Part shown: in pieces, positions 1,658 to 20,470 of the stretch
Position numbering within the stretch: the stretch's first letter is position 1
How the letters are laid out: every line of letters begins with the position of its first letter
From: a virus
Lineage: Duplodnaviria; Heunggongvirae; Uroviricota; Caudoviricetes
Direction: 5' to 3' (one strand)
DNA: 23,775 bases
Virus record (IMG/VR): IMGVR_UViG_2541047805_000001
The notes under the pieces: model-generated
What the model was told of the DNA's origin: nothing
Database searches by the model: none
What the model saw: the letters and a program-made list of their open reading frames with translations, nothing else
Made by a program: the position numbers and the translations under genes

Positions 1658-4129
1658 TTAAGAATCAGCCTGACTCGGGATCAGTTTTTGCCAGATAACT
1701 GAAACGTATTTTGCCTGGTAACGGGCGTCATCAAGTGCATTATGGCGCTCACCTTCGAATGGAATAGCCGTTCTGGCATCGAAGTCTATGGCTTTCCCCA
1801 GCTCAACGATTGTGCGTACATCGCGATCGTTGTAGTAACGCCACGGGCAGGGGATCCCCTGCCGTTCGTATGAACGGCGCAAAATCGTGTTGTCGAAGTT
1901 GGCTCCATTTCCCCAAACCTGAACAAAAAATTCACCGGAGTTTTCGTCGATAAATTCTCGCAATTGTAACAGTGCATCATCTAACGGGATTTCATCGGTC
2001 ATAATGGCAGATTGCGCTTCGCGTGATTGCTTAAGCCACCATTTAATGGTGTCCCGATCAATGACTCCGCCAGCAGTTTCCAGATCGATAGTCTTACTAA
2101 ATTCCGGTCCCATATCTCCGGTTTGCGGATCGAAAAATATTGCACCTATTGAGATGATCGGGGCATCAGGATTTTTTCCCATGGTTTCAAGGTCGATCAT
2201 TAGATGGTCACACGTCCTGCTGGTGGATGTGATTTCGTGATGACCGTTCACCTTAATTGGGTGATCTGCCGTCTCGCCAGTTTCATTATCGCTATTGTGA
2301 TGCTGATTGCCGCCAGTGTTCTCCTTGTGTGGATGTTCAGCGCCTTCCATTTCCTCCGGATCATCTTCCTGAACTTCAACCTGATACTCTTCATCGAATG
2401 TTTCTTGGTATGTTGCGTCGCCCATCACCGCGCCACAATCAGGGCAGTTGCCGCCGCCGGTCTGACCGCAGGCGGTGCAGACTTTTTCCACTTCCTGTTG
2501 CGCTACTGGTTCAGGCTGTTTCGTTTCTGGCTCGTTTTGTAACGCATTTGGACTGTTTTGTTCCGCTTTTTGGTAGTTCCGTTCCGATTCATGCTGGTTC
2601 TGGTTCACAGAATCGCGGGTCTGGAGCCCCTTAACCCATTTCGGATCATTCGGGTCACTAATCCCTTCAACAAATTCACCACGTGATGCAGCAAGCAACT
2701 TATCGGCGTCAGGCTGGCTGATATTGGCTGCCTGCATAATTTTGTTTACTTCGTCAGCGGTAACTTTTATCGGCTCTGGTTGTTCTGAATCTTCAGCGGT
2801 ATCTACATTTTGCGGTAAGCCCGTGTATGTGCCATTTTTTCGGGCAAAATATTCTTCTTTTGTGATTTCAGTGGCGCCAGCAGCCAGTGCCTTATCCAGA
2901 CCAGAGAGTTTGTTTGCGCGACCGTATTTTTCTCCGTCCTTATCTGCGAAGAGGAAATAGAACGGCCCCTCACGCTCTACAGATGGTTCAGCTTCCGGCG
3001 CGGTTTCATTTTTTGGGATATCAGATACCTCAGTTTCCACTGCATCAGTTTGTGTTTCTGATGACTGGAGAACATCAACAGTGCCCAGGTCTGTTTCTTC
3101 ATTCTCAAACACGCCCTTTGTCGTCAGGTATTCGCAGATATATTTGTTCAGTGCTACGGGATCTTTGTGAATGTCGATCGGACGCTCACGGACAAGGCCA
3201 AAAATAGTTTGGCGGTCGTAGCGAAGGGCATCAGGCTGTTTGCGCATTGATGCCGAGATACGCTTCCAGTCTTCGCGGTCGTTGTCGATAACTTCTTTTT
3301 TTGCCCAGCGATGGATGCTGCCGTCAATGTTTCCGGCATCCACATCACTAGGCCAGAGAGCGTAGGCCAGTTCGTCATCCAGTGTTTTCCATGTCTGCTT
3401 GTATTCGCGATGAATGGCAGCAATGACCGGGCTGATTTTTCCTGTTGAATTTTCAGTGTACTGTTGATTGGCTCTGGCGCGGGCGAGATCAACAACAGAC
3501 GTGTATTTTCCGGTTTCCTTGCGTTCACCTTCGCGACGTTTTTTCCAGATGCGCATCTCTGCCTGAATTTCGGGCCATTTAGCACCAGGAATACATTTAT
3601 GCTTAACCCACCCAATGGCGTGCAACTTAAGCTCCGGATACATGGCGTTAACTTCTGGCATTTTCATCAACGCTTCAACGATATGTCCGTCGAATGTTGC
3701 CATGTCTTCCTGCAACAATTCCTGTGCGCTAATAACCATATCAACGGTGATGTTTTCACATGTGTCGAACTTAACCATGACAGCGTTCTGTACTTCAGGG
3801 GCCAGCTTGTCAAAAGTGACGTTCATCGGATCGGATTCAGTCTCAACCGGGACAAAAGAAGCAGACTCCTCATCCCAGCGGTTTTCCTGCATATATTCAG
3901 CATCCCATGAATCGAGGGCAGGGCGGGGTATGCCAGGTTTATCCTCGCAGACAATAAATTTATAAGCGCAGTCCTGAGCAGCCGGATAATGTTCCAGGAA
4001 TTGCCAGTGAAATTTTGCTCGAGCACGGCGTTCGTCGCCAGCTTCAATGGCTGTGGCTACAGCCACAGCGCCTTCTTCCCTTGTTGCCAGTTCGTCAGGA
4101 ATAGCGGCGCAAATAAAGACTTTACTCAT
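1658..4129 (-). CDS. Large phage exonuclease annotated in databases as exodeoxyribonuclease VIII-like; C-terminal DEDDh (DnaQ-like) 3'-5' exonuclease domain
   Basis: ORF runs 1658..4165 with a TTG at 4165; ATG at 4129 (MSKVFICAA) has a GAGG about 9 nt upstream. C-terminus carries DnaQ-like motifs (HLMIDLETMG; HNALDDARYQ). Central acidic low-complexity region and a CxxC-x8-CxxC zinc ribbon (CTACGQTGGGNCPDCG). Occupies the position of the K-12 ydfE pseudogene. Confidence 0.8.
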   Translation of the reverse strand: MSKVFICAAIPDELATREEGAVAVATAIEAGDERRARAKFHWQFLEHYPAAQDCAYKFIVCEDKPGIPRPALDSWDAEYMQENRWDEESASFVPVETESDPMNVTFDKLAPEVQNAVMVKFDTCENITVDMVISAQELLQEDMATFDGHIVEALMKMPEVNAMYPELKLHAIGWVKHKCIPGAKWPEIQAEMRIWKKRREGERKETGKYTSVVDLARARANQQYTENSTGKISPVIAAIHREYKQTWKTLDDELAYALWPSDVDAGNIDGSIHRWAKKEVIDNDREDWKRISASMRKQPDALRYDRQTIFGLVRERPIDIHKDPVALNKYICEYLTTKGVFENEETDLGTVDVLQSSETQTDAVETEVSDIPKNETAPEAEPSVEREGPFYFLFADKDGEKYGRANKLSGLDKALAAGATEITKEEYFARKNGTYTGLPQNVDTAEDSEQPEPIKVTADEVNKIMQAANISQPDADKLLAASRGEFVEGISDPNDPKWVKGLQTRDSVNQNQHESERNYQKAEQNSPNALQNEPETKQPEPVAQQEVEKVCTACGQTGGGNCPDCGAVMGDATYQETFDEEYQVEVQEDDPEEMEGAEHPHKENTGGNQHHNSDNETGETADHPIKVNGHHEITSTSRTCDHLMIDLETMGKNPDAPIISIGAIFFDPQTGDMGPEFSKTIDLETAGGVIDRDTIKWWLKQSREAQSAIMTDEIPLDDALLQLREFIDENSGEFFVQVWGNGANFDNTILRRSYERQGIPCPWRYYNDRDVRTIVELGKAIDFDARTAIPFEGERHNALDDARYQAKYVSVIWQKLIPSQADS

Positions 4130-4221
4130 TTGTTTTAACCTCATGACAGATTTAAGGATGAACAAATCCCTGCCATTGCTGGCATATAAGAATGAAACCG
4201 GATATTTATTACGGAACTGTT

Positions 4222-4413
4222 TTAAAGACCTGCCGGGATTTCGATATTATCCTGGTGAATAACTTTATCGACCGGGTAACAGTTACCGGGAATTTTCTGT
4301 TCGGTTGCTGCAGTCATACACTCCTGCATTGTCCTGTGAACACTGACTGCAATATCAACTGGCTCTCCGGAAACAAGAAAAACTGTCAGAACAAGCACAA
4401 ATGCTGAATTCAT
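4222..4413 (-). CDS. ydfD: YdfD, small membrane lysis protein (63 aa)
   Basis: MNSAFVLVLTVFLVSGEP... has an N-terminal hydrophobic segment. Start overlaps dicB stop by 4 nt (translational coupling). Length and sequence match recalled Qin YdfD. Confidence 0.75.
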   Translation of the reverse strand: MNSAFVLVLTVFLVSGEPVDIAVSVHRTMQECMTAATEQKIPGNCYPVDKVIHQDNIEIPAGL

Positions 4414-4598
4414 TGTGCACATCCTTTTGGCATCAGACGTAAACGAGCCAGCATTGAAACAATGCATATTTTATTTAATAGCTCCCGTTCTTGTTTTCTC
4501 TTGTTAATGGCATCTTCAGTAAATACTGGGTTACTGATAGTGACACCAATTTCAAAACAACCTTCAGACGTATTAACGTTTGGTAATAACGTTTTCAT
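4410..4598 (-). CDS. dicB: DicB cell-division inhibitor (62 aa)
   Basis: MKTLLPNVNTSEGCFEIGVTISNPVFTEDAINKRKQERELLNKICIVSMLARLRLMPKGCAQ matches recalled DicB. Lies downstream of DicF in the operon. Confidence 0.85.
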   Translation of the reverse strand: MKTLLPNVNTSEGCFEIGVTISNPVFTEDAINKRKQERELLNKICIVSMLARLRLMPKGCAQ

Positions 4599-4767
4599 TA
4601 TCGCGTCCTCAACAATGAATTTTGTGATGCAGTGCCTGGTGCCTCCAGGTGACGTTAACCAGTTAACAATTAACGCCGGATACAGAGAATCCACCCATAA
4701 CACTGTTTTTGGTTTTAACTGTTCCGCGTGCGCTCAGCCGCATTCACCACATCACAAAATTCACTTT

Positions 4768-4825
4768 AAAAAGGGCGGCAGAGCAGTCACGGAGTAAAAC
4801 TGATACCGCCAAACGTCACCAGAAA
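4768..4825 (-). ncRNA. dicF: DicF small regulatory RNA (ftsZ-targeting), with its intrinsic terminator
   Basis: Minus-strand sequence UUUCUGGUGACGUUUGGCGGUAUCAGUUUUACUCCGUGACUGCUCUGCCGCCCUUUUU matches recalled DicF, including the GC-rich hairpin and U-run. Ends are approximate because DicF is processed from the operon transcript. Confidence 0.8.
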
Positions 4826-5165
4826 ATTGATAACAGAGGGCGTTGCAGCGGGGTTGTCACTTAAGCGTATGGTCAACCTGACAACCCGGTGTCCTCAACG
4901 GGGAAGGAATAACCCCGCCATACTTACCGCCGCGCCATTTCGCGGGTTGCCACAACCGGAAGCGCACGGTCGACGAAAATTTAACGACAGGCTATCTATG
5001 AACCAGCTACCTCGCCGTGCGCTTTCGCGTTATGGTCTGACTTTTCAGGGAAATATCCTTTCAGTAAACTGTCAGTTCCGGATGCGCACCCGTGTCCGGC
5101 GCACGCACTCCACCTCACCCGTGGAGAACTCCTTAATTACTAACCTTAGCTTTGTTGATTAGCTA

Positions 5166-5384
5166 CTAACGCGGGTATGTAATCATTCTGGCAATGCTTA
5201 ATGCCGCTGCTTTTTCCAGATTGGTGATATCCTGCTCCAGAGCGGACAGATTTTCAGCCTGCTTAGCCCTGGCTTCATTAGCCCATTTCAGATCCTGCGC
5301 TGCATTAATTTTCTGGCGCATCCACTCATAAAGTTCATCATCGGTATAGTCTGGCGCGATGATGACGGGTTCTCGTTTCTGCAT
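5166..5384 (-). CDS. ydfC: YdfC small protein (72 aa)
   Basis: 72-aa ORF MQKREPVIIAPDYTDDELYEWMRQ... at the expected position in the dicB operon. Confidence 0.7.
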   Translation of the reverse strand: MQKREPVIIAPDYTDDELYEWMRQKINAAQDLKWANEARAKQAENLSALEQDITNLEKAAALSIARMITYPR

Positions 5385-5413
5385 ACTGATTCCTCGCGGT
5401 GCTGTTTCGCTTA

Positions 5414-5542
5414 TCAGCCGTTAGATTTTGCCGAACTGGAAAGCGCCTGTTTAAACTCACTGAAGCTGAGAGCTTCTTCGCCTTCGGCAAGGCCTTCGAA
5501 GTATTCTTCGTAAGCCTTTTCCATGATTGTGTCGAAATCCAT
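5414..5542 (-). CDS. ydfB: YdfB small acidic protein (42 aa)
   Basis: Hand-translated from the minus strand: MDFDTIMEKAYEEYFEGLAEGEEALSFSEFKQALSSSAKSNG (42 aa). Start lies 2 nt after the ydfA stop. Below the ORF-track size cutoff. Confidence 0.6.
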   Translation of the reverse strand: MDFDTIMEKAYEEYFEGLAEGEEALSFSEFKQALSSSAKSNG

Positions 5543-5543
5543 A

Positions 5544-5699
5544 TCACTCACCTGAGTTTCTTTCCAGCCAGCGACGGGCACCATTTTCGGTTTTAAACGT
5601 TTTGCTTTTGGTATACGTCATTGCGGTGAACGTGCCGTCCTGGTTTGGAAACACGCCGTACACCAGAGATTCGTTGTTGCCAAGATCGATAGTATCCAT
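5544..5699 (-). CDS. ydfA: YdfA small protein (51 aa)
   Basis: Internal start of ORF 5544..5777 gives MDTIDLGNNESLVYGVFPNQDGTFTAMTYTKSKTFKTENGARRWLERNSGE (51 aa). First gene of the dicB operon, downstream of dicA. Confidence 0.65.
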   Translation of the reverse strand: MDTIDLGNNESLVYGVFPNQDGTFTAMTYTKSKTFKTENGARRWLERNSGE

Positions 5700-5779
5700 G
5701 CTGACCTCATTTCCCCTTAACGCTGGGGTAGCGGAACTGTTTGCTGAGAACACCGTGCGGTGTGTTGATGCAAACAAGA

Positions 5780-5831
5780 TTAGCCATGACTAACATATCG
5801 GTCAAGTGATTTTGTATGCTATAGCTAACAT
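5780..5831 (-). promoter_or_regulatory. Putative operator/promoter region of the dicB operon
   Basis: TTAGCCATGACTAACA (5780-5795) and TAGCTAACA (5822-5830) share the ATGACTAACA / GCTAACA core with the palindromes in the dicA-dicC intergenic region. Lies between dicA 3' end and ydfA start. Confidence 0.4.
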
Positions 5832-5865
5832 AATTGATGTGGTAAAAGATAACTCATTGATGATG

Positions 5866-6273
5866 TTATCTTTTATTTGTCCGCTGACGGGCTTTTAGTA
5901 ATTCTTCAAAGAGTTTATTGAAGTTTTTTACTCGAGCTCGCATTTCGGCGAGCTGGGTATCCTGTTCTGATTCTGGCAGTGCATTAAACAGCTCAAGGAG
6001 CTCTAGTTCTTTGGGGGATAAGGCAACTGGCTTCTCAACAGGTGGTGTTGGTTGCTTGTCTTCATCGCCAAATAGAATCCATGTTGGTGAGCATTGCAAT
6101 ACTTTGCTGAGGGCAAAAAGGTTCTTCCCTGTAGGTTCACTATCACCCCGTTCCCATTGTGATACAGACACATGGGAGATTTTCAGGGCTTTAGCAAGAG
6201 ACCTTTGGGTGTGTTTGAGGTTTTTCCGACGATACCTGATGCGTTCGCCGATAGTTAAATTTTTTGTTTCCAT
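5866..6273 (-). CDS. dicA: DicA, HTH (XRE-family) repressor (135 aa)
   Basis: METKNLTIGERIRYRRKNLKHTQRSLAKALKISHVSVSQWERG... has an N-terminal HTH. Divergent from dicC. Matches recalled DicA. Confidence 0.9.
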   Translation of the reverse strand: METKNLTIGERIRYRRKNLKHTQRSLAKALKISHVSVSQWERGDSEPTGKNLFALSKVLQCSPTWILFGDEDKQPTPPVEKPVALSPKELELLELFNALPESEQDTQLAEMRARVKNFNKLFEELLKARQRTNKR

Positions 6274-6356
6274 AGTTAGCTAATGCTAAATCGTATTGAC
6301 TATGTTTTTGTTAACATCTATCTTGTTAGTTATGACTAACAATAAAGGTGTTTTAA
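6274..6356. promoter_or_regulatory. dicA/dicC divergent promoter-operator region
   Basis: 83-bp intergenic region with perfect palindrome TTAGCTAA (6275-6288 context) and inverted repeat TGTTAGTtatgACTAACA (6324-6341). TTGACT-like -35 at 6295-6300. Confidence 0.55.
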
Positions 6357-6587
6357 ATGCTTAAAACTGACGCTCTTTTGTATTTCGGTTCAAAAACAAA
6401 ACTTGCACAAGCAGCAGGTATTCGTTTGGCTTCGCTTTATAGCTGGAAAGGGGATTTAGTTCCCGAAGGTCGCGCGATGCGTCTACAGGAGGCATCTGGC
6501 GGGGAGCTTCAGTATGATCCCAAAGTTTATGATGAATATCGTAAGACGAAGCGGGCGGGGCGGTTGAACAATGAAAATCACTCCTGA
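6357..6587 (+). CDS. dicC: DicC, Cro-like regulator (76 aa)
   Basis: MLKTDALLYFGSKTKLAQAAGIRLASLYSWKGDL..., 76 aa, divergent from dicA. Matches recalled DicC. Confidence 0.85.
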   Translation: MLKTDALLYFGSKTKLAQAAGIRLASLYSWKGDLVPEGRAMRLQEASGGELQYDPKVYDEYRKTKRAGRLNNENHS

Positions 6588-6972
6588 ACAGGCTCGTGAG
6601 GCTCTGGATGCCTGGATATGTCGACCAGGAATGACACAGGAGCAGGCGACGATATTAATCACTGAAGCATTCTGGGCTTTGAAAGAGCGCCCGAACATCG
6701 ATGTTCAGCGTGTCACATATGAAGGTGGCGCGATTGATCAGCGAGCGCTTGGCGTTAATCGAGTGAAGATATTTGAACGCTGGAAGGCTATCGACACCAG
6801 GGATAAGCGTGAAAAGTTCACGGCGCTAGTGCCTGCAATTATGGAGGCTAAAGACACTGGGCATCGAGCCAATCCATGCCAACAGCCCGCAGGCAAAAGG
6901 GCGGGTAGAGCGCGCCAATCAGACACTACAGGACAGGCTGGTCAAAGAAATGCGGCTTCAGAATATCAGTGA
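6571..6972 (+). CDS. ydfX: YdfX-like ORF whose 3' part runs out of frame into a transposase remnant
   Basis: Start overlaps the dicC stop. N-terminal ~95 aa look protein-like. After about 6860 the frame is an out-of-frame read of the transposase fragment. Confidence 0.35.
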   Translation: MKITPEQAREALDAWICRPGMTQEQATILITEAFWALKERPNIDVQRVTYEGGAIDQRALGVNRVKIFERWKAIDTRDKREKFTALVPAIMEAKDTGHRANPCQQPAGKRAGRARQSDTTGQAGQRNAASEYQ

Positions 6973-7492
6973 TATTGAAACAGCAAATGCATGGTTGCCG
7001 ACCTTTATTGAAGCCTATAACAACCGGTTCGCTACGTCGCCTCGTACTACTGATAATGCTCATCTTGATGTGCACCATTCTGAAGAGGAACTGGGTTATA
7101 TCTTCAGCCTACAGGCGAAGCGCGTTCTGTCTAAAAATCTCACTTTCCAGTACAAAAGCAGTGCGTTTCAGGTACGCAGTGAGGGCCGGGGATATCGACT
7201 TAGGCATTCGGTTGTTACTGTATGCGAGAACTTTGACGGTGAAATTAACGTTCTGTATGACGGGAAAGCGCTGGGCTGGGAAAAGTATGTTGATGGCCCG
7301 GAGCCTATACCACTGGATGATGAAAAGAGTGTCCATGAACGAGTGGATAATGCCCGTATTGATTTACGCTCAAAATACTATGTTAAACCTAAAGCTGACC
7401 ATCCCTGGCTTACGCGCCGAACGCAAAGTCATCAGCAAGTTAAGCCCCCGAAGTTACCTAAAAAGAAGCCTGATCCCGATAAAAAAGATTGA
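6860..7492 (+). pseudogene. C-terminal fragment of a DDE (rve-type) transposase/integrase; equivalent of K-12 intK/ydfW
   Basis: Frame-2 translation from about 6860 reads GIEPIHANSPQAKGRVERANQTLQDRLVKEMRL..., a conserved DDE-transposase motif. No N-terminal part or start codon. ORF 6950..7492 is the tail of this frame. Confidence 0.6.
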
Positions 7493-7887
7493 AACCAAGA
7501 TCGATTCGGTTGAGTGCATATCCATTCATAGGGTAGATTCTTAAGTCGCGTTTCTGGTGTTCATTTTCGGGTGGTTTGTTACTTGTTTTACCGGGGATAT
7601 GCCAGAAACGCGCTGAGTCAGTCTGGGCGGTGCGCGTAATGAGGCGTTATGGTAAATAGCCTATGCTAATGTCCGCTAAGAGCAAGAAGCGGAAGTTGGC
7701 AGTTTTGTGGACTGTCCCCACAAAAGTGACTACAGAAATAGTTGCAATTCATAATTGATCATGGGTTGTCAGTTAAACTCGTGGCGATTTAAATAGACTA
7801 ATTGGGAGTGCGTCCATTACTTATATCTTGTAATGTTAACTATCAGAAATGATACAAAGATAATATGTCTTTAAAGAAAAGGCTGAT

Positions 7888-12811: not shown

Positions 12812-13111
12812 AAAAATTCCTTAATACTGATAACTTGGCGCACTATACACACGTTCCTGAAGAAAGCTATAGTTTTTTGATGGGGTTGAAGATGGCTGGA
12901 TGTCTAAAATAAACATTGCTTCATATGTTCAACTATGCGTTAATGATTGCGTCGGTTTGAAGAACAGACGATATACGAAGTAGTTTACTAAAGCAGTTCT
13001 CATTTCAGGTGTTATTCACTTATTCCTTCTTTGAGTCTCTCCAATTAAGTACGAAGTCGTTTCTGTTATGCAAACCATTTATGCCGAAAGGCTCAAGTTA
13101 AGGAATGTAGA

Positions 13112-13327
13112 ATGTCAAATAAAATGACTGGTTTAGTAAAATGGTTTAACGCTGATAAAGGTTTCGGCTTTATTTCTCCTGTTGATGGTAGTAAAGATGT
13201 GTTTGTGCATTTTTCTGCGATTCAGAATGATAATTATCGAACCTTATTTGAAGGTCAAAAGGTTACCTTCTCTATAGAGAGTGGTGCTAAAGGTCCTGCA
13301 GCAGCAAATGTCATCATTACTGATTAA
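13112..13327 (+). CDS. cspB: Cold-shock protein CspB (71 aa)
   Basis: [71 protein letters not shown], with RNP1/RNP2 motifs. Long 5' leader upstream. Confidence 0.9.
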
Positions 13328-13607
13328 AATTCATCGCTCGTCTGTATACGATAACGAAGAAGGCTGATGCCTGAGTAGAGATACGGACAGAGTAGTGAAT
13401 ATTGGATTTCTTTAATAAAAATTAAGGAGGTCCAATACATGAAACAATGGCCAGCATATTTGGCAAAATCTTAATCAGGAAAAGTATGCTAACCATTGTG
13501 GTGAAGTGCAGGTTTGCTGCATGAATAGTTTTACAGCAGAAGCTAACTGCTGGCATGGCAAAACAAAGTGCGTAAGTGGATGACTCCCACAAAAAGCACC
13601 ACAATCT

Positions 13608-15636: not shown

Positions 15637-15999
15637 GGTAATATTAAATCGGAACATTTACATCGCGGAATGTAAAATTTAAATAAAAAGGACTCTTCCA
15701 TGAGCCAAAATTCCTGAAATCTTAAGGGTAAGATAAAAGGTCTTAATCAGAATGACACGTTATTATTAATAAATAAAGCTATTCTTTCATTGCTGTGTTT
15801 TTCTTTACAAAAGTAATCCTTGCTATGGGTGGTTAATCATGCGTTAATGGTGTTCTGGTTTGTTACAAATTTATCTGAAGCAGTCATTGTTATAATTTTA
15901 TTATTTGTACCTCTTGAGATTTCCTTGTTGGTTTTTCTCTCTGATATTTTTTTTCGGACCATTCTGCCCAAGGGCTAATTTCTTCAAAAGGTAATAATT

Positions 16000-16212
16000 A
16001 TGTCTAACAAAATGACTGGTTTAGTGAAATGGTTTAACCCTGAAAAAGGTTTTGGTTTCATCACGCCGAAAGATGGCAGCAAAGATGTGTTTGTCCATTT
16101 CTCAGCAATTCAGAGCAACGATTTCAAAACATTAACTGAGAATCAGGAAGTTGAATTTGGTATTGAGAACGGACCTAAAGGTCCTGCCGCTGTTCATGTA
16201 GTGGCGCTTTGA
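16000..16212 (+). CDS. cspI: Cold-shock protein CspI (70 aa)
   Basis: [70 protein letters not shown]. Confidence 0.9.
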
Positions 16213-16414
16213 GGTAGACAATATTACAAACCATATTCACTTTAGATGCCCGTGTTGTCATGGTTCCCAGTATAGAACATCATCTTTTGATGTTTCTGAC
16301 ATGAATCCTTTCGGGGCAAAATGTATCTTTTGTAAATCAATGATGATTACATTTGATAATATTTCACAATACTTAAATGCCAGCCGTCTGTCGTTGGATT
16401 TAAAAAAGTGAAAA

Positions 16415-19895: not shown

Positions 19896-20470
19896 TGGCA
19901 TTCAGAATGAGTGAACAACCACGGACCATAAAAATTTATAATCTGCTGGCCGGAACTAATGAATTTATTGGTGAAGGTGACGCATATATTCCGCCTCATA
20001 CAGGTCTGCCAGCAAACAGTACCGATATTGCACCGCCAGATATTCCGGCAGGCTTCGTGGCTGTTTTCAACAGTGATGAGGCATCGTGGCATCTCGTTGA
20101 AGATCATCGGGGTAAAACGGTTTATGACGTGGCTTCCGGCGACGCGTTATTTATTTCTGAACTCGGTCCGTTACCGGAAAATGTTACCTGGTTATCGCCG
20201 GAAGGGGAGTTTCAGAAGTGGAACGGCACAGCCTGGGTGAAAGATGCAGAAGCAGAAAAACTGTTCCGGATCCGAGAGGCGGAAGAAACAAAAAACAGCC
20301 TGATGCAGGTAGCCAGTGAGCATATTGCGCCACTTCAGGATGCTGTAGATCTGGAAATCGCAACGGAGGAAGAAACCTCATTGCTGGAAGCCTGGAAAAA
20401 GTATCGGGTGTTGCTGAACCGTGTTGATACGTCAACTGCACAGGATATTGAATGGCCAGCACTGCCGTAG
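19895..20470 (+). CDS. tfaQ: Tail fibre assembly protein (191 aa)
   Basis: Start overlaps the stfQ stop (TAATG). 191 aa, matching the Tfa family length and the position after stf. Confidence 0.8.

Follow-up and report, generated by a model that had tools for sequence, protein, structure and literature searches.

Does a phage operon that encodes three growth-inhibitory effectors also encode, in three further small genes, the partners of these effectors, or do the small genes have a life of their own? We addressed this question with a 23,775-nt sequence of a tailed phage (Caudoviricetes; IMG/VR record IMGVR_UViG_2541047805_000001), called the window below at its full length. Its positions 4222-5699 carry ydfA, ydfB, ydfC, the small RNA (sRNA) DicF, dicB and ydfD. 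Phage and prophage loci that were fetched for comparison have numbers beginning with L. Judged from its sequence, this span forms the part nearest to the promoter in the early-left (lambda pL-type) operon of a lambdoid prophage like Qin, namely the dicBF operon. On balance we favour the reading that this is a Qin-like early-left operon in which the small genes are swappable accessory genes, and hold it with moderate confidence.

The operon is nearly the same as that of Escherichia coli K-12. A 2.6-kb region compared with the K-12 (DH1) chromosome contained 2 base differences (at 5017 and 6106), which corresponds to 99.9% nucleotide identity. All of the operon products, protein or RNA, were identical to those of K-12, without a single amino-acid difference, and the gene order (ydfA-ydfB-ydfC-DicF-dicB-ydfD) and the junctions were also those of the K-12 Qin prophage. 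The two elements differ farther along: in K-12 Qin, ydfE is truncated by IS2 and the integrase gene is partial, whereas the exonuclease gene, xis and int are intact in the window, which thus has the early-left operon in complete form. An operon with 100% identity over 1478 nt was found in Escherichia phage PhiR42_1 (host ECOR13), indicating that the operon is not restricted to cryptic remnants. PhiR42_1 is an active phage, which makes knockouts in a living phage feasible. A preliminary description of this DNA had listed the same genes with their sizes, junctions and span, and translation of the open reading frames (ORFs) and the Rfam match to DicF confirmed them. The locus, its three effectors and the uncharacterised status of ydfABC are already in the literature, and that description adds nothing beyond the published locus.

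The activities of the effectors are known from published work. DicF represses ftsZ at the level of translation, and also xylR and pykA (PMC5069750; PMC10448788). DicB inhibits division via MinC (as stated in PMC6206680 and PMC11430063). Overproduction of YdfD leads to lysis, and YdfD binds IspG (PMC8835842). The DicF sequence of the window equals that of K-12 DicF, whose pairing with ftsZ and repression of it are published. The functions that had been attributed to the three effectors (DicF on ftsZ, DicB through MinC, YdfD in lysis) agree with both the identity to K-12 and these reports. Likewise, YdfA and YdfB had been described as proteins without assigned function, and ydfA, ydfB and ydfC are called genes of 'unknown function' in PMC5069750, PMC10448788 and PMC11430063.

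These reports and the layout of the window together give the course of expression. DicA, which represses dicBp (PMC10448788), is encoded upstream of the promoter, and one leftward transcript carries ydfA, ydfB (probably coupled to ydfA) and ydfC. A highly structured untranslated stretch of 567 nt follows, from which RNase III and RNase E release the 190-nt and 53-nt forms of DicF; according to the published accounts, DicF is cut from the polycistronic transcript by RNase III to give the 190-nt species and by RNase E to give the 53-nt species (PMC5069750; PMC10448788). The DicF terminator must be passed for dicB to be reached (PMC5069750). Beyond it lie dicB, the overlapping ydfD, and then the exonuclease gene, xis and int. 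DicF blocks translation of ftsZ, DicB blocks septation through MinC, and YdfD, if overproduced, lyses dividing cells, an effect that DicB masks.

The toxicity of the intact operon bears directly on our question. When the chromosomal operon including ydfABC was driven by Plac, it was extremely toxic and lethal upon induction (PMC5069750). A dicF dicB double deletion that kept ydfABC and ydfD was not toxic (PMC5069750). Co-expression of DicB or SulA prevents lysis by YdfD (PMC8835842; PMC11430063). Because DicB masks the lysis by YdfD and the double deletion is harmless, the toxicity of the induced operon is attributable to DicB and to a lesser extent to DicF. Thus, the three growth inhibitors named in the preliminary description are all present, but they are not equal and independent effectors within the operon: the effect of DicB prevails, DicF adds to it, and that of YdfD is masked.

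One explanation of the small genes is that one or more of YdfA, YdfB and YdfC keep DicB, DicF or YdfD in check as antidotes or modulators, so that the operon would be a multi-toxin module with its own antitoxins. The three genes are co-transcribed with the effectors and lie close to the promoter, so that their products would be made first, and the proteins are small and acidic like many antitoxins and inhibitors. The toxicity data argue against this explanation, since the operon that contains ydfABC is extremely toxic and becomes harmless only without dicF and dicB. Moreover, the published antagonism within the operon is the blocking of YdfD by DicB. Like toxin-antitoxin modules, the operon has small genes adjacent to growth inhibitors and a translationally coupled pair, dicB-ydfD, in which one product suppresses the effect of the other. 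It differs from them in that DicB is itself toxic and acts indirectly, by stopping the division that lysis by YdfD needs. In addition, the published toxicity data argue against neutralisation by ydfABC, and these genes show no obligatory linkage.

The linkage was analysed in 70 IMG/VR loci that were anchored on DicB and included no less than 2.5 kb of upstream sequence. ydfD was present in all 70, DicF in 59, ydfA in 55, ydfB in 43 and ydfC in 24, and 11 loci contained neither DicF nor any of ydfABC. dicB and ydfD therefore form one tightly coupled pair, overlapping by 4 nt (ATGA) in the window and occurring together in 70 of 70 loci, and this coupling fits the published epistasis of DicB over YdfD. 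Variants also exist in which dicA leads directly into dicB (L095) or in which DicF alone stands between them (dicA > DicF > dicB, L093). The reverse situation was found in an E. coli prophage, L167, which keeps ydfA-ydfB-ydfC and the structured RNA domain and has no dicB or ydfD. Its DicF/dicB/ydfD segment is replaced (at 5765-6829) by isrK, a C4 antisense RNA, a Phage_ASH/pRha anti-repressor-like gene and KilR, so that ydfABC stand beside KilR in place of DicB and YdfD. In the Rac prophage, too, a homologue of YdfA with the same domain (DUF1391) lies beside kilR without dicB. It should be said in favour of antidotes that the small genes are conserved and that, among loci anchored on a ydfA of the K-12 type, dicB and ydfD usually accompany them. 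Taken together, a role of ydfA, ydfB and ydfC as antidotes or modulators, which had been put forward for testing by expressing each of them with and without the effectors, finds no support, given that induction of the intact operon kills the cells and that prophages keep dicB-ydfD without the small genes. We regard it as very unlikely, and with the question sharpened in this way an antidote experiment is unlikely to pay off. A weak modulatory effect of the three proteins on the toxins is possible.

The slot of the small genes also accepts other genes. In L120 a counter-oriented gene for a 106-aa predicted membrane protein (4176-4496, minus strand) replaces ydfC and the end of ydfB, at a position like that of sieB. 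In L137 an unrelated ORF of 125 aa (3952-4329, plus strand) replaces both ydfB and ydfC. These replacements, together with the DicB-anchored counts and the occurrence of ydfABC with KilR, show no obligatory linkage of the small genes to the toxins. We infer that ydfA, ydfB and ydfC are not toxin partners but accessory cassettes that lie close to the early-left promoter and can be exchanged, and by analogy their slot would be that of lambda ral, sieB, cIII and similar genes. As a side remark, a 205-aa ORF resembling a fusion of YdfB (phrog_35040) is probably an antisense-strand read-through of a membrane gene of the L120 type.

Two well-known operons provide the comparison for this reading. Like the lambda pL operon (N, ral, sieB, cIII, kil, gam/bet/exo, xis, int), the operon of the window is repressor-controlled and leftward, and it begins with small accessory genes, continues with a small division inhibitor (Kil in lambda, DicB here) and ends with functions for recombination, excision and integration. 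It differs in that YdfA, YdfB and YdfC have no homology to lambda pL proteins, N and nut are absent, an sRNA and a structured RNA are embedded, and the exonuclease belongs to another family. The Rac prophage (racR > ydaG > ydaF > sieB > kilR) shares a DUF1391 gene that lies near the repressor gene and precedes the gene of a small division inhibitor; YdaF is 86% identical to YdfA. It also has a counter-oriented sieB-type membrane gene, as does the Qin-like variant L120. The differences are KilR in place of DicB, the absence of ydfD, ydfB and ydfC, and a YdaG that is unrelated to YdfB.

The position that the small genes share with N and cIII of lambda suggests another explanation, in which at least one of the small proteins would regulate the lysis-lysogeny decision or early transcription, as a CIII-like protease inhibitor, a helper of an anti-repressor or an N-like antiterminator acting past the DicF terminator. 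Read-through of this terminator is indeed needed to reach dicB (PMC5069750), and no evident N homologue was seen within the operon. On the other hand, the proteins do not resemble N, CIII or other pL proteins of lambda in sequence, all three are acidic (isoelectric points, pI, in Table 1) and have no arginine-rich motif, and prophages without the small genes still have the genes downstream. The known anti-repressor is Rem (PMC10448788). We consider such a regulatory role unlikely.

The accessory-gene reading requires that ydfA, ydfB and ydfC be real protein genes. The ratio of nonsynonymous to synonymous polymorphism (pN/pS) was computed over about 300 fetched loci for the annotated frame and two off-frames. 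In the annotated frame it was 0.17 for ydfA, 0.26 for ydfB and 0.40 for ydfC, versus 0.7-6.4 overall in the off-frames (6.4 and 1.5 for ydfA). The established genes of the same loci gave 0.09 (dicA), 0.41 (dicB) and 0.36 (ydfD). YdfA matched Pfam PF07151 (DUF1391) over its full length (98.5 bits versus 27.3, E 1.7e-28) and belongs to phrog_751. YdfB and YdfC found no family in the Pfam scan, and were assigned to the phage families phrog_2061 (E 1.3e-27) and phrog_1744 (E 1.6e-39), respectively. Homologues of YdfA formed 290 clusters (Escherichia, Shigella and Salmonella) with a strongly conserved core in the alignment. Those of YdfB formed 125 clusters (Escherichia, Salmonella, Cronobacter and Citrobacter) with 11 invariant residues, and those of YdfC formed 114 clusters, all from Escherichia, with identities down to 46%. 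Homologues of the small ORFs as low as 46-60% in identity occupy the same syntenic slot. These results indicate that all three small ORFs are real genes whose protein products are under purifying selection. Conservation of the small ORFs at the protein level, which the preliminary description had left to be checked, was thus found in the form of frame-specific selection and membership in phage protein families.

The same data bear on the idea that the small ORFs are translated spacers, in which ribosomes would shield the early transcript from Rho termination or decay for the sake of DicF, dicB and the recombination genes, and the peptides themselves would be of little importance. An untranslated stretch of 341 nt lies between ydfC and DicF, the stability of the ydfA transcript depends on processing by RNase E as well as RNase III (PMC10448788), and the cassettes are exchanged freely for unrelated ORFs, all of which would suit a spacer. 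The purifying selection on all three ORFs is frame-specific, however, YdfB retains its invariant residues over four genera, and the signature of DUF1391 is fixed over 328 diverged clusters and occurs also inside unrelated large proteins. Variants without the upstream ORFs still retain dicB and ydfD. A pure spacer function is therefore highly doubtful in our judgement.

ydfC has a mosaic structure. A sharp breakpoint lies at about codon 23 (about 5316-5320 in the window, about 4066-4070 in L163-L167). The segment on its 5' side comprises ydfA, ydfB and codons 1-22 of ydfC and has a nucleotide identity of 97-98% between diverged loci, compared with only about 50-60% on its 3' side. The junction is in frame in several distinct allele types, and the product has a similar size in most of them. 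The C-terminal helix evolves fast, with a ratio of nonsynonymous to synonymous substitution rates (dN/dS) of 0.44-0.78.

We then considered what the small proteins, taken as accessory products, may do. A profile search with DUF1391 among 1.84 billion representatives yielded 328 clusters, and 46 diverse domains shared conserved columns with the signature GNNE..G..DG..A.T..SK.FKT..GA..W, which YdfA carries. About one tenth of the top 150 matches were long proteins. By Pfam scans, DUF1391 was combined with DarA_N in six proteins (440-935 aa), with DarA_N and ddrB-ParB in one protein (1572 aa), and with ArdC-N and DUF3560 in two proteins. Polyvalent proteins of phages and conjugative elements are delivered together with the DNA and serve as early anti-restriction or host-takeover effectors (PMC5512222). 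As DUF1391 is also a module of such DarA_N, ddrB-ParB and ArdC-N proteins, we propose that YdfA, with its 48-aa DUF1391 domain, may be a stand-alone early module for host takeover or counter-defence, for example in restriction alleviation. This is the role that we consider most likely for YdfA, yet it is a tentative proposal, with an appreciable chance that is still well below even. YdfA shares the module with the polyvalent proteins of the DarA, DdrB and ArdC type (Iyer et al. 2017), and differs from them as a stand-alone protein of 51 aa behind an early promoter, not a giant delivered by virion or pilus. The fusions with DarA_N and ArdC-N point to restriction alleviation and anti-defence as the roles to probe for YdfA.

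The AlphaFold2 (AF2) model of YdfA predicted a three-stranded beta sheet and a C-terminal helix, with a mean predicted local distance difference test (pLDDT) of 78. The beta3-alpha topology of the model resembles, as an impression only, DNA-binding domains of the integrase-N or AP2 type. Two candidate relatives of YdfA were tried and rejected. For CedA, the Pfam profile gave E 0.073 for 2 of 26 members and hhalign a probability of 7-10% over 21-22 columns, and CedA was also absent among the sequence and fold matches in the PDB that were listed for YdfA. For the lambda head decoration protein gpD, a 19-residue match weakened from E 0.025 to 0.18 with a broader profile and was judged to be chance. 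The ydfA ORF of PhiR42_1 (PV340562.1, 6590-6799; L004, 5947-6156) is labelled 'head-DNA stabilization protein D', which is probably an artefact of the same chance match. In a plasmid collection the records with YdfA were all either prophage-like or mis-assigned, and none placed it in a conjugative leading region. A scan of GTDB genomes with a narrower DUF1391 alignment gave 18 loci, mostly in Escherichia and Shigella.

For the other two proteins the predictions are simpler. Judged from its sequence, YdfB looks like an acidic helical peptide. The AF2 model of YdfC predicted an unstructured N-terminal peptide (residues 1-14) and a single helix of 55 residues (15-69), with a pLDDT of 87.7. YdfC looks like a rapidly evolving coiled-coil helix that carries an invariant peptide at its N-terminus. 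A comparison of both with the sequences of solved structures gave only noise and generic coiled coils; the matches of YdfC were coiled-coil-like. In the simplest reading, each would be a small protein-binding inhibitor directed at host or competitor factors.

Several points weigh against the picture of accessory genes with functions of their own. The loci studied are biased towards close relatives of the query. The selection signal of ydfC is modest, as seen from its pN/pS and the dN/dS of its helix, and the conservation of the YdfC N-terminus is weakened as a sign of strong selection, because the breakpoint makes it partly a shared recombinant segment. As to YdfA, the argument for its role is the domain fusion, the large proteins in which DUF1391 is one domain of several are metagenomic and rare, and the main text of PMC5512222 does not name DUF1391. 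Because the activities of polyvalent proteins are mixed, 'early conflict effector' is a more suitable term than 'anti-restriction'. Foldseek searches of the YdfA model against the PDB and BFVD returned nothing better than E 0.08, and the PADLOC defence models gave no meaningful match to YdfA. BLASTP and profile comparisons of YdfA, YdfB and YdfC with lambda N, Ral, CIII, Ea10, Kil, Gam, Bet, Exo, orf28, orf60a and orf63 gave nothing meaningful either.

The RNA between ydfC and dicB is a second subject of this operon. The whole 567-nt untranslated stretch folds far better than its shuffled versions (z-score -5.07). Directly 5' of DicF we found a domain of 133 nt, here named preF, which is conserved in many phages, often more than DicF itself. 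It is present in Stx2c phages, in phage cdtI (immediately after cI), in many prophages and in P1, where the Pban leader is annotated as a 'dicF-like region'. We collected 82 sequence variants and tested a structure model on 22 diverse ones. In the model 94.6% of the cells were paired, versus 33-56% when the partners were slid, and six pairs had compensatory double changes versus 1.7 in shuffles, with none of 500 shuffles reaching as high. A pseudoknot joins GUAUGG with CCAUAC. Scores of the covariance model were 158.9 bits for the window, 149 for cdtI and 85 for P1, and Rfam contained no family for preF. Homology to the put sites of HK022 (putL/putR) was rejected, as the covariance model returned nothing at E <= 1 in the HK022 early region and in lambda, a result that concerns homology only.

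In its extent preF corresponds to the 5' part of the 190-nt DicF species known from the literature, in which RNase III generates the 5' end (PMC10448788). Farther upstream, a long imperfect duplex (-39.6 kcal/mol, z-score -3.78) is plausibly the RNase III site that creates this 5' end, with the coordinates mapped by inference. The 3' arm of the duplex, GGUUGUGG, overlaps the 5' strand of the preF outer stem and can pair alternatively there. preF may be a scaffold for maturation, a control of terminator read-through or an independent riboregulator. A wider proposal joins these ideas to those on the proteins: the three small genes would encode early counter-defence or host-takeover peptides (YdfA as a stand-alone polyvalent module, YdfC as an N-terminal 'hook' on a diversifying coiled coil), and preF would be functional in its own right, controlling DicF maturation or terminator read-through into dicB. 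We consider this combination possible but doubtful. The analysis thus gave two new leads as by-products, modest and testable: polyvalent proteins contain DUF1391, and the long form of DicF has a structured 5' domain.

The leader between DicF and dicB gave a sub-threshold match to Rfam STnc100 (34.4 bits versus a gathering score of 47, E 2.5e-5) and is conserved in phages of the D6/P7 type. A related leader was noticed upstream of kilR in Rac (L177, about 4676-4954), which suggests a 5' untranslated module common to different division inhibitors. Downstream of preF, DicF-like sRNAs with a different 5' seed and a retained GGCGG...CCGCC-UUUUU terminator hairpin were seen in L163 (5990-6050), L166 (5540-5600) and L167 (5470-5540). 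They score below the Rfam gathering threshold and suggest diversification of the seed among prophages.

The features of the locus are collected in Table 1. In the window itself DicF matched RF00039 with 76.7 bits (gathering score 48, E 1.3e-15) over model positions 1-52 of 52, and UUUUU follows its hairpin. DicB, matched over its full length, scored 136.8 bits versus 27 in Pfam (E 1.9e-40) and 132.8 bits versus a cut-off of 100 with its NCBIfam model, and YdfD 91.1 bits versus 25 with Pfam PF07358 (E 3.9e-26), with a mean hydropathy above 2 over residues 1-16. A Shine-Dalgarno-like GAGG/AGGA lies 6-9 nt upstream of every ORF of the operon. The ydfA stop and the ydfB start form TGAtATG, in which a single spacer base separates the codons and the ATG begins 2 nt past the last base of the stop; with the start only 1 nt after the stop, translational coupling is likely.

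Table 1. Features of the dicBF operon and its surroundings, in positions of the 23,775-nt window.
Feature	Positions	Strand	Description
ydfA	5544-5699	minus	51 aa, pI 5.2; ORF translation
ydfB	5414-5542	minus	42 aa, pI 4.05, acidic/basic residues 10 vs 3
ydfC	5166-5384	minus	72 aa, pI 5.0; ORF translation
Long imperfect RNA duplex	4950-5035	minus	candidate RNase III site, 190-nt DicF 5' end
preF RNA domain directly 5' of DicF	4831-4963	minus	outer stem, two hairpins, long hairpin, pseudoknot
DicF sRNA	4773-4824	minus	52-53 nt; Rfam RF00039; terminator hairpin and U-run
Structured leader, DicF to dicB	4599-4772	minus	part of the 567-nt untranslated stretch
dicB	4410-4598	minus	62 aa, division inhibitor; Pfam PF05358, NCBIfam NF049927
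ydfD	4222-4413	minus	63 aa, DUF1482, hydrophobic N-terminus
Exonuclease gene (ydfE equivalent)	1658-4165	minus	intact, 823-835 aa depending on start codon
xis	about 1334-1585	minus	after the exonuclease gene in the same leftward operon
int	about 19-1299	minus	after xis in the same leftward operon
Candidate dicBp promoter and DicA operators	5777-5831	minus	hexamers read by eye; pattern matches
dicA	5866-6273	minus	CI-like repressor, 135 aa; upstream, same strand as operon
Palindromic operator-like site, dicA-dicC intergenic	6323-6342	undefined	matches on both strands
dicC	6357-6587	plus	Cro-like regulator, 76 aa, divergent from dicA

The candidate promoter consists of a -35-like TTGACC (5800-5805) and a -10-like TAATCT (5777-5782) spaced by N17; these hexamers are our own reading and were absent from the output of a consensus scan. 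Two operator-like sites, at 5815-5831 and 5780-5796, are exact pattern matches and precede ydfA, and one operator-like site overlaps the sigma-70-like TTGACC-N17-TAATCT sequence. The pattern ATGTTAGYYATRGCWWA had 4 matches in the window versus 0.13 expected. The site in the dicA-dicC intergenic region is a palindromic relative of the two sites before ydfA and fits this pattern on both strands with 2 mismatches. The product of dicA is identical to that of K-12 and matched Pfam HTH_3 (E 1.3e-16) and Phage_CI_repr. dicC matched P22_Cro (E 1.7e-11) and has this name in the K-12 DH1 record.

At the other end of the operon, the exonuclease matched Pfam Rv2179c-like (E 2.5e-67), with the 3'-5' exonuclease domain at the C-terminus. 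The gene calls of this left arm (exonuclease, xis and int) were checked against the RefSeq annotation of a genome with 99.4% identity.

Two further observations concern the plus strand beyond dicC. At 6571-7544 a YdaT-like ORF after dicC looks truncated and is followed by ORFs that, in our impression, resemble transposase fragments; the closest genomes have partial YdaT and DUF977 genes and an annotated ISNCY transposase near this position. Rfam located two cspA-type thermoregulator leaders and an IS009 RNA (226.7 bits) at 12951-13343, 15854-16239 and 20238-20436 (plus strand). The cspA-type leaders probably belong to the cold-shock genes of Qin; the closest genome has annotations of cspB and cspI.

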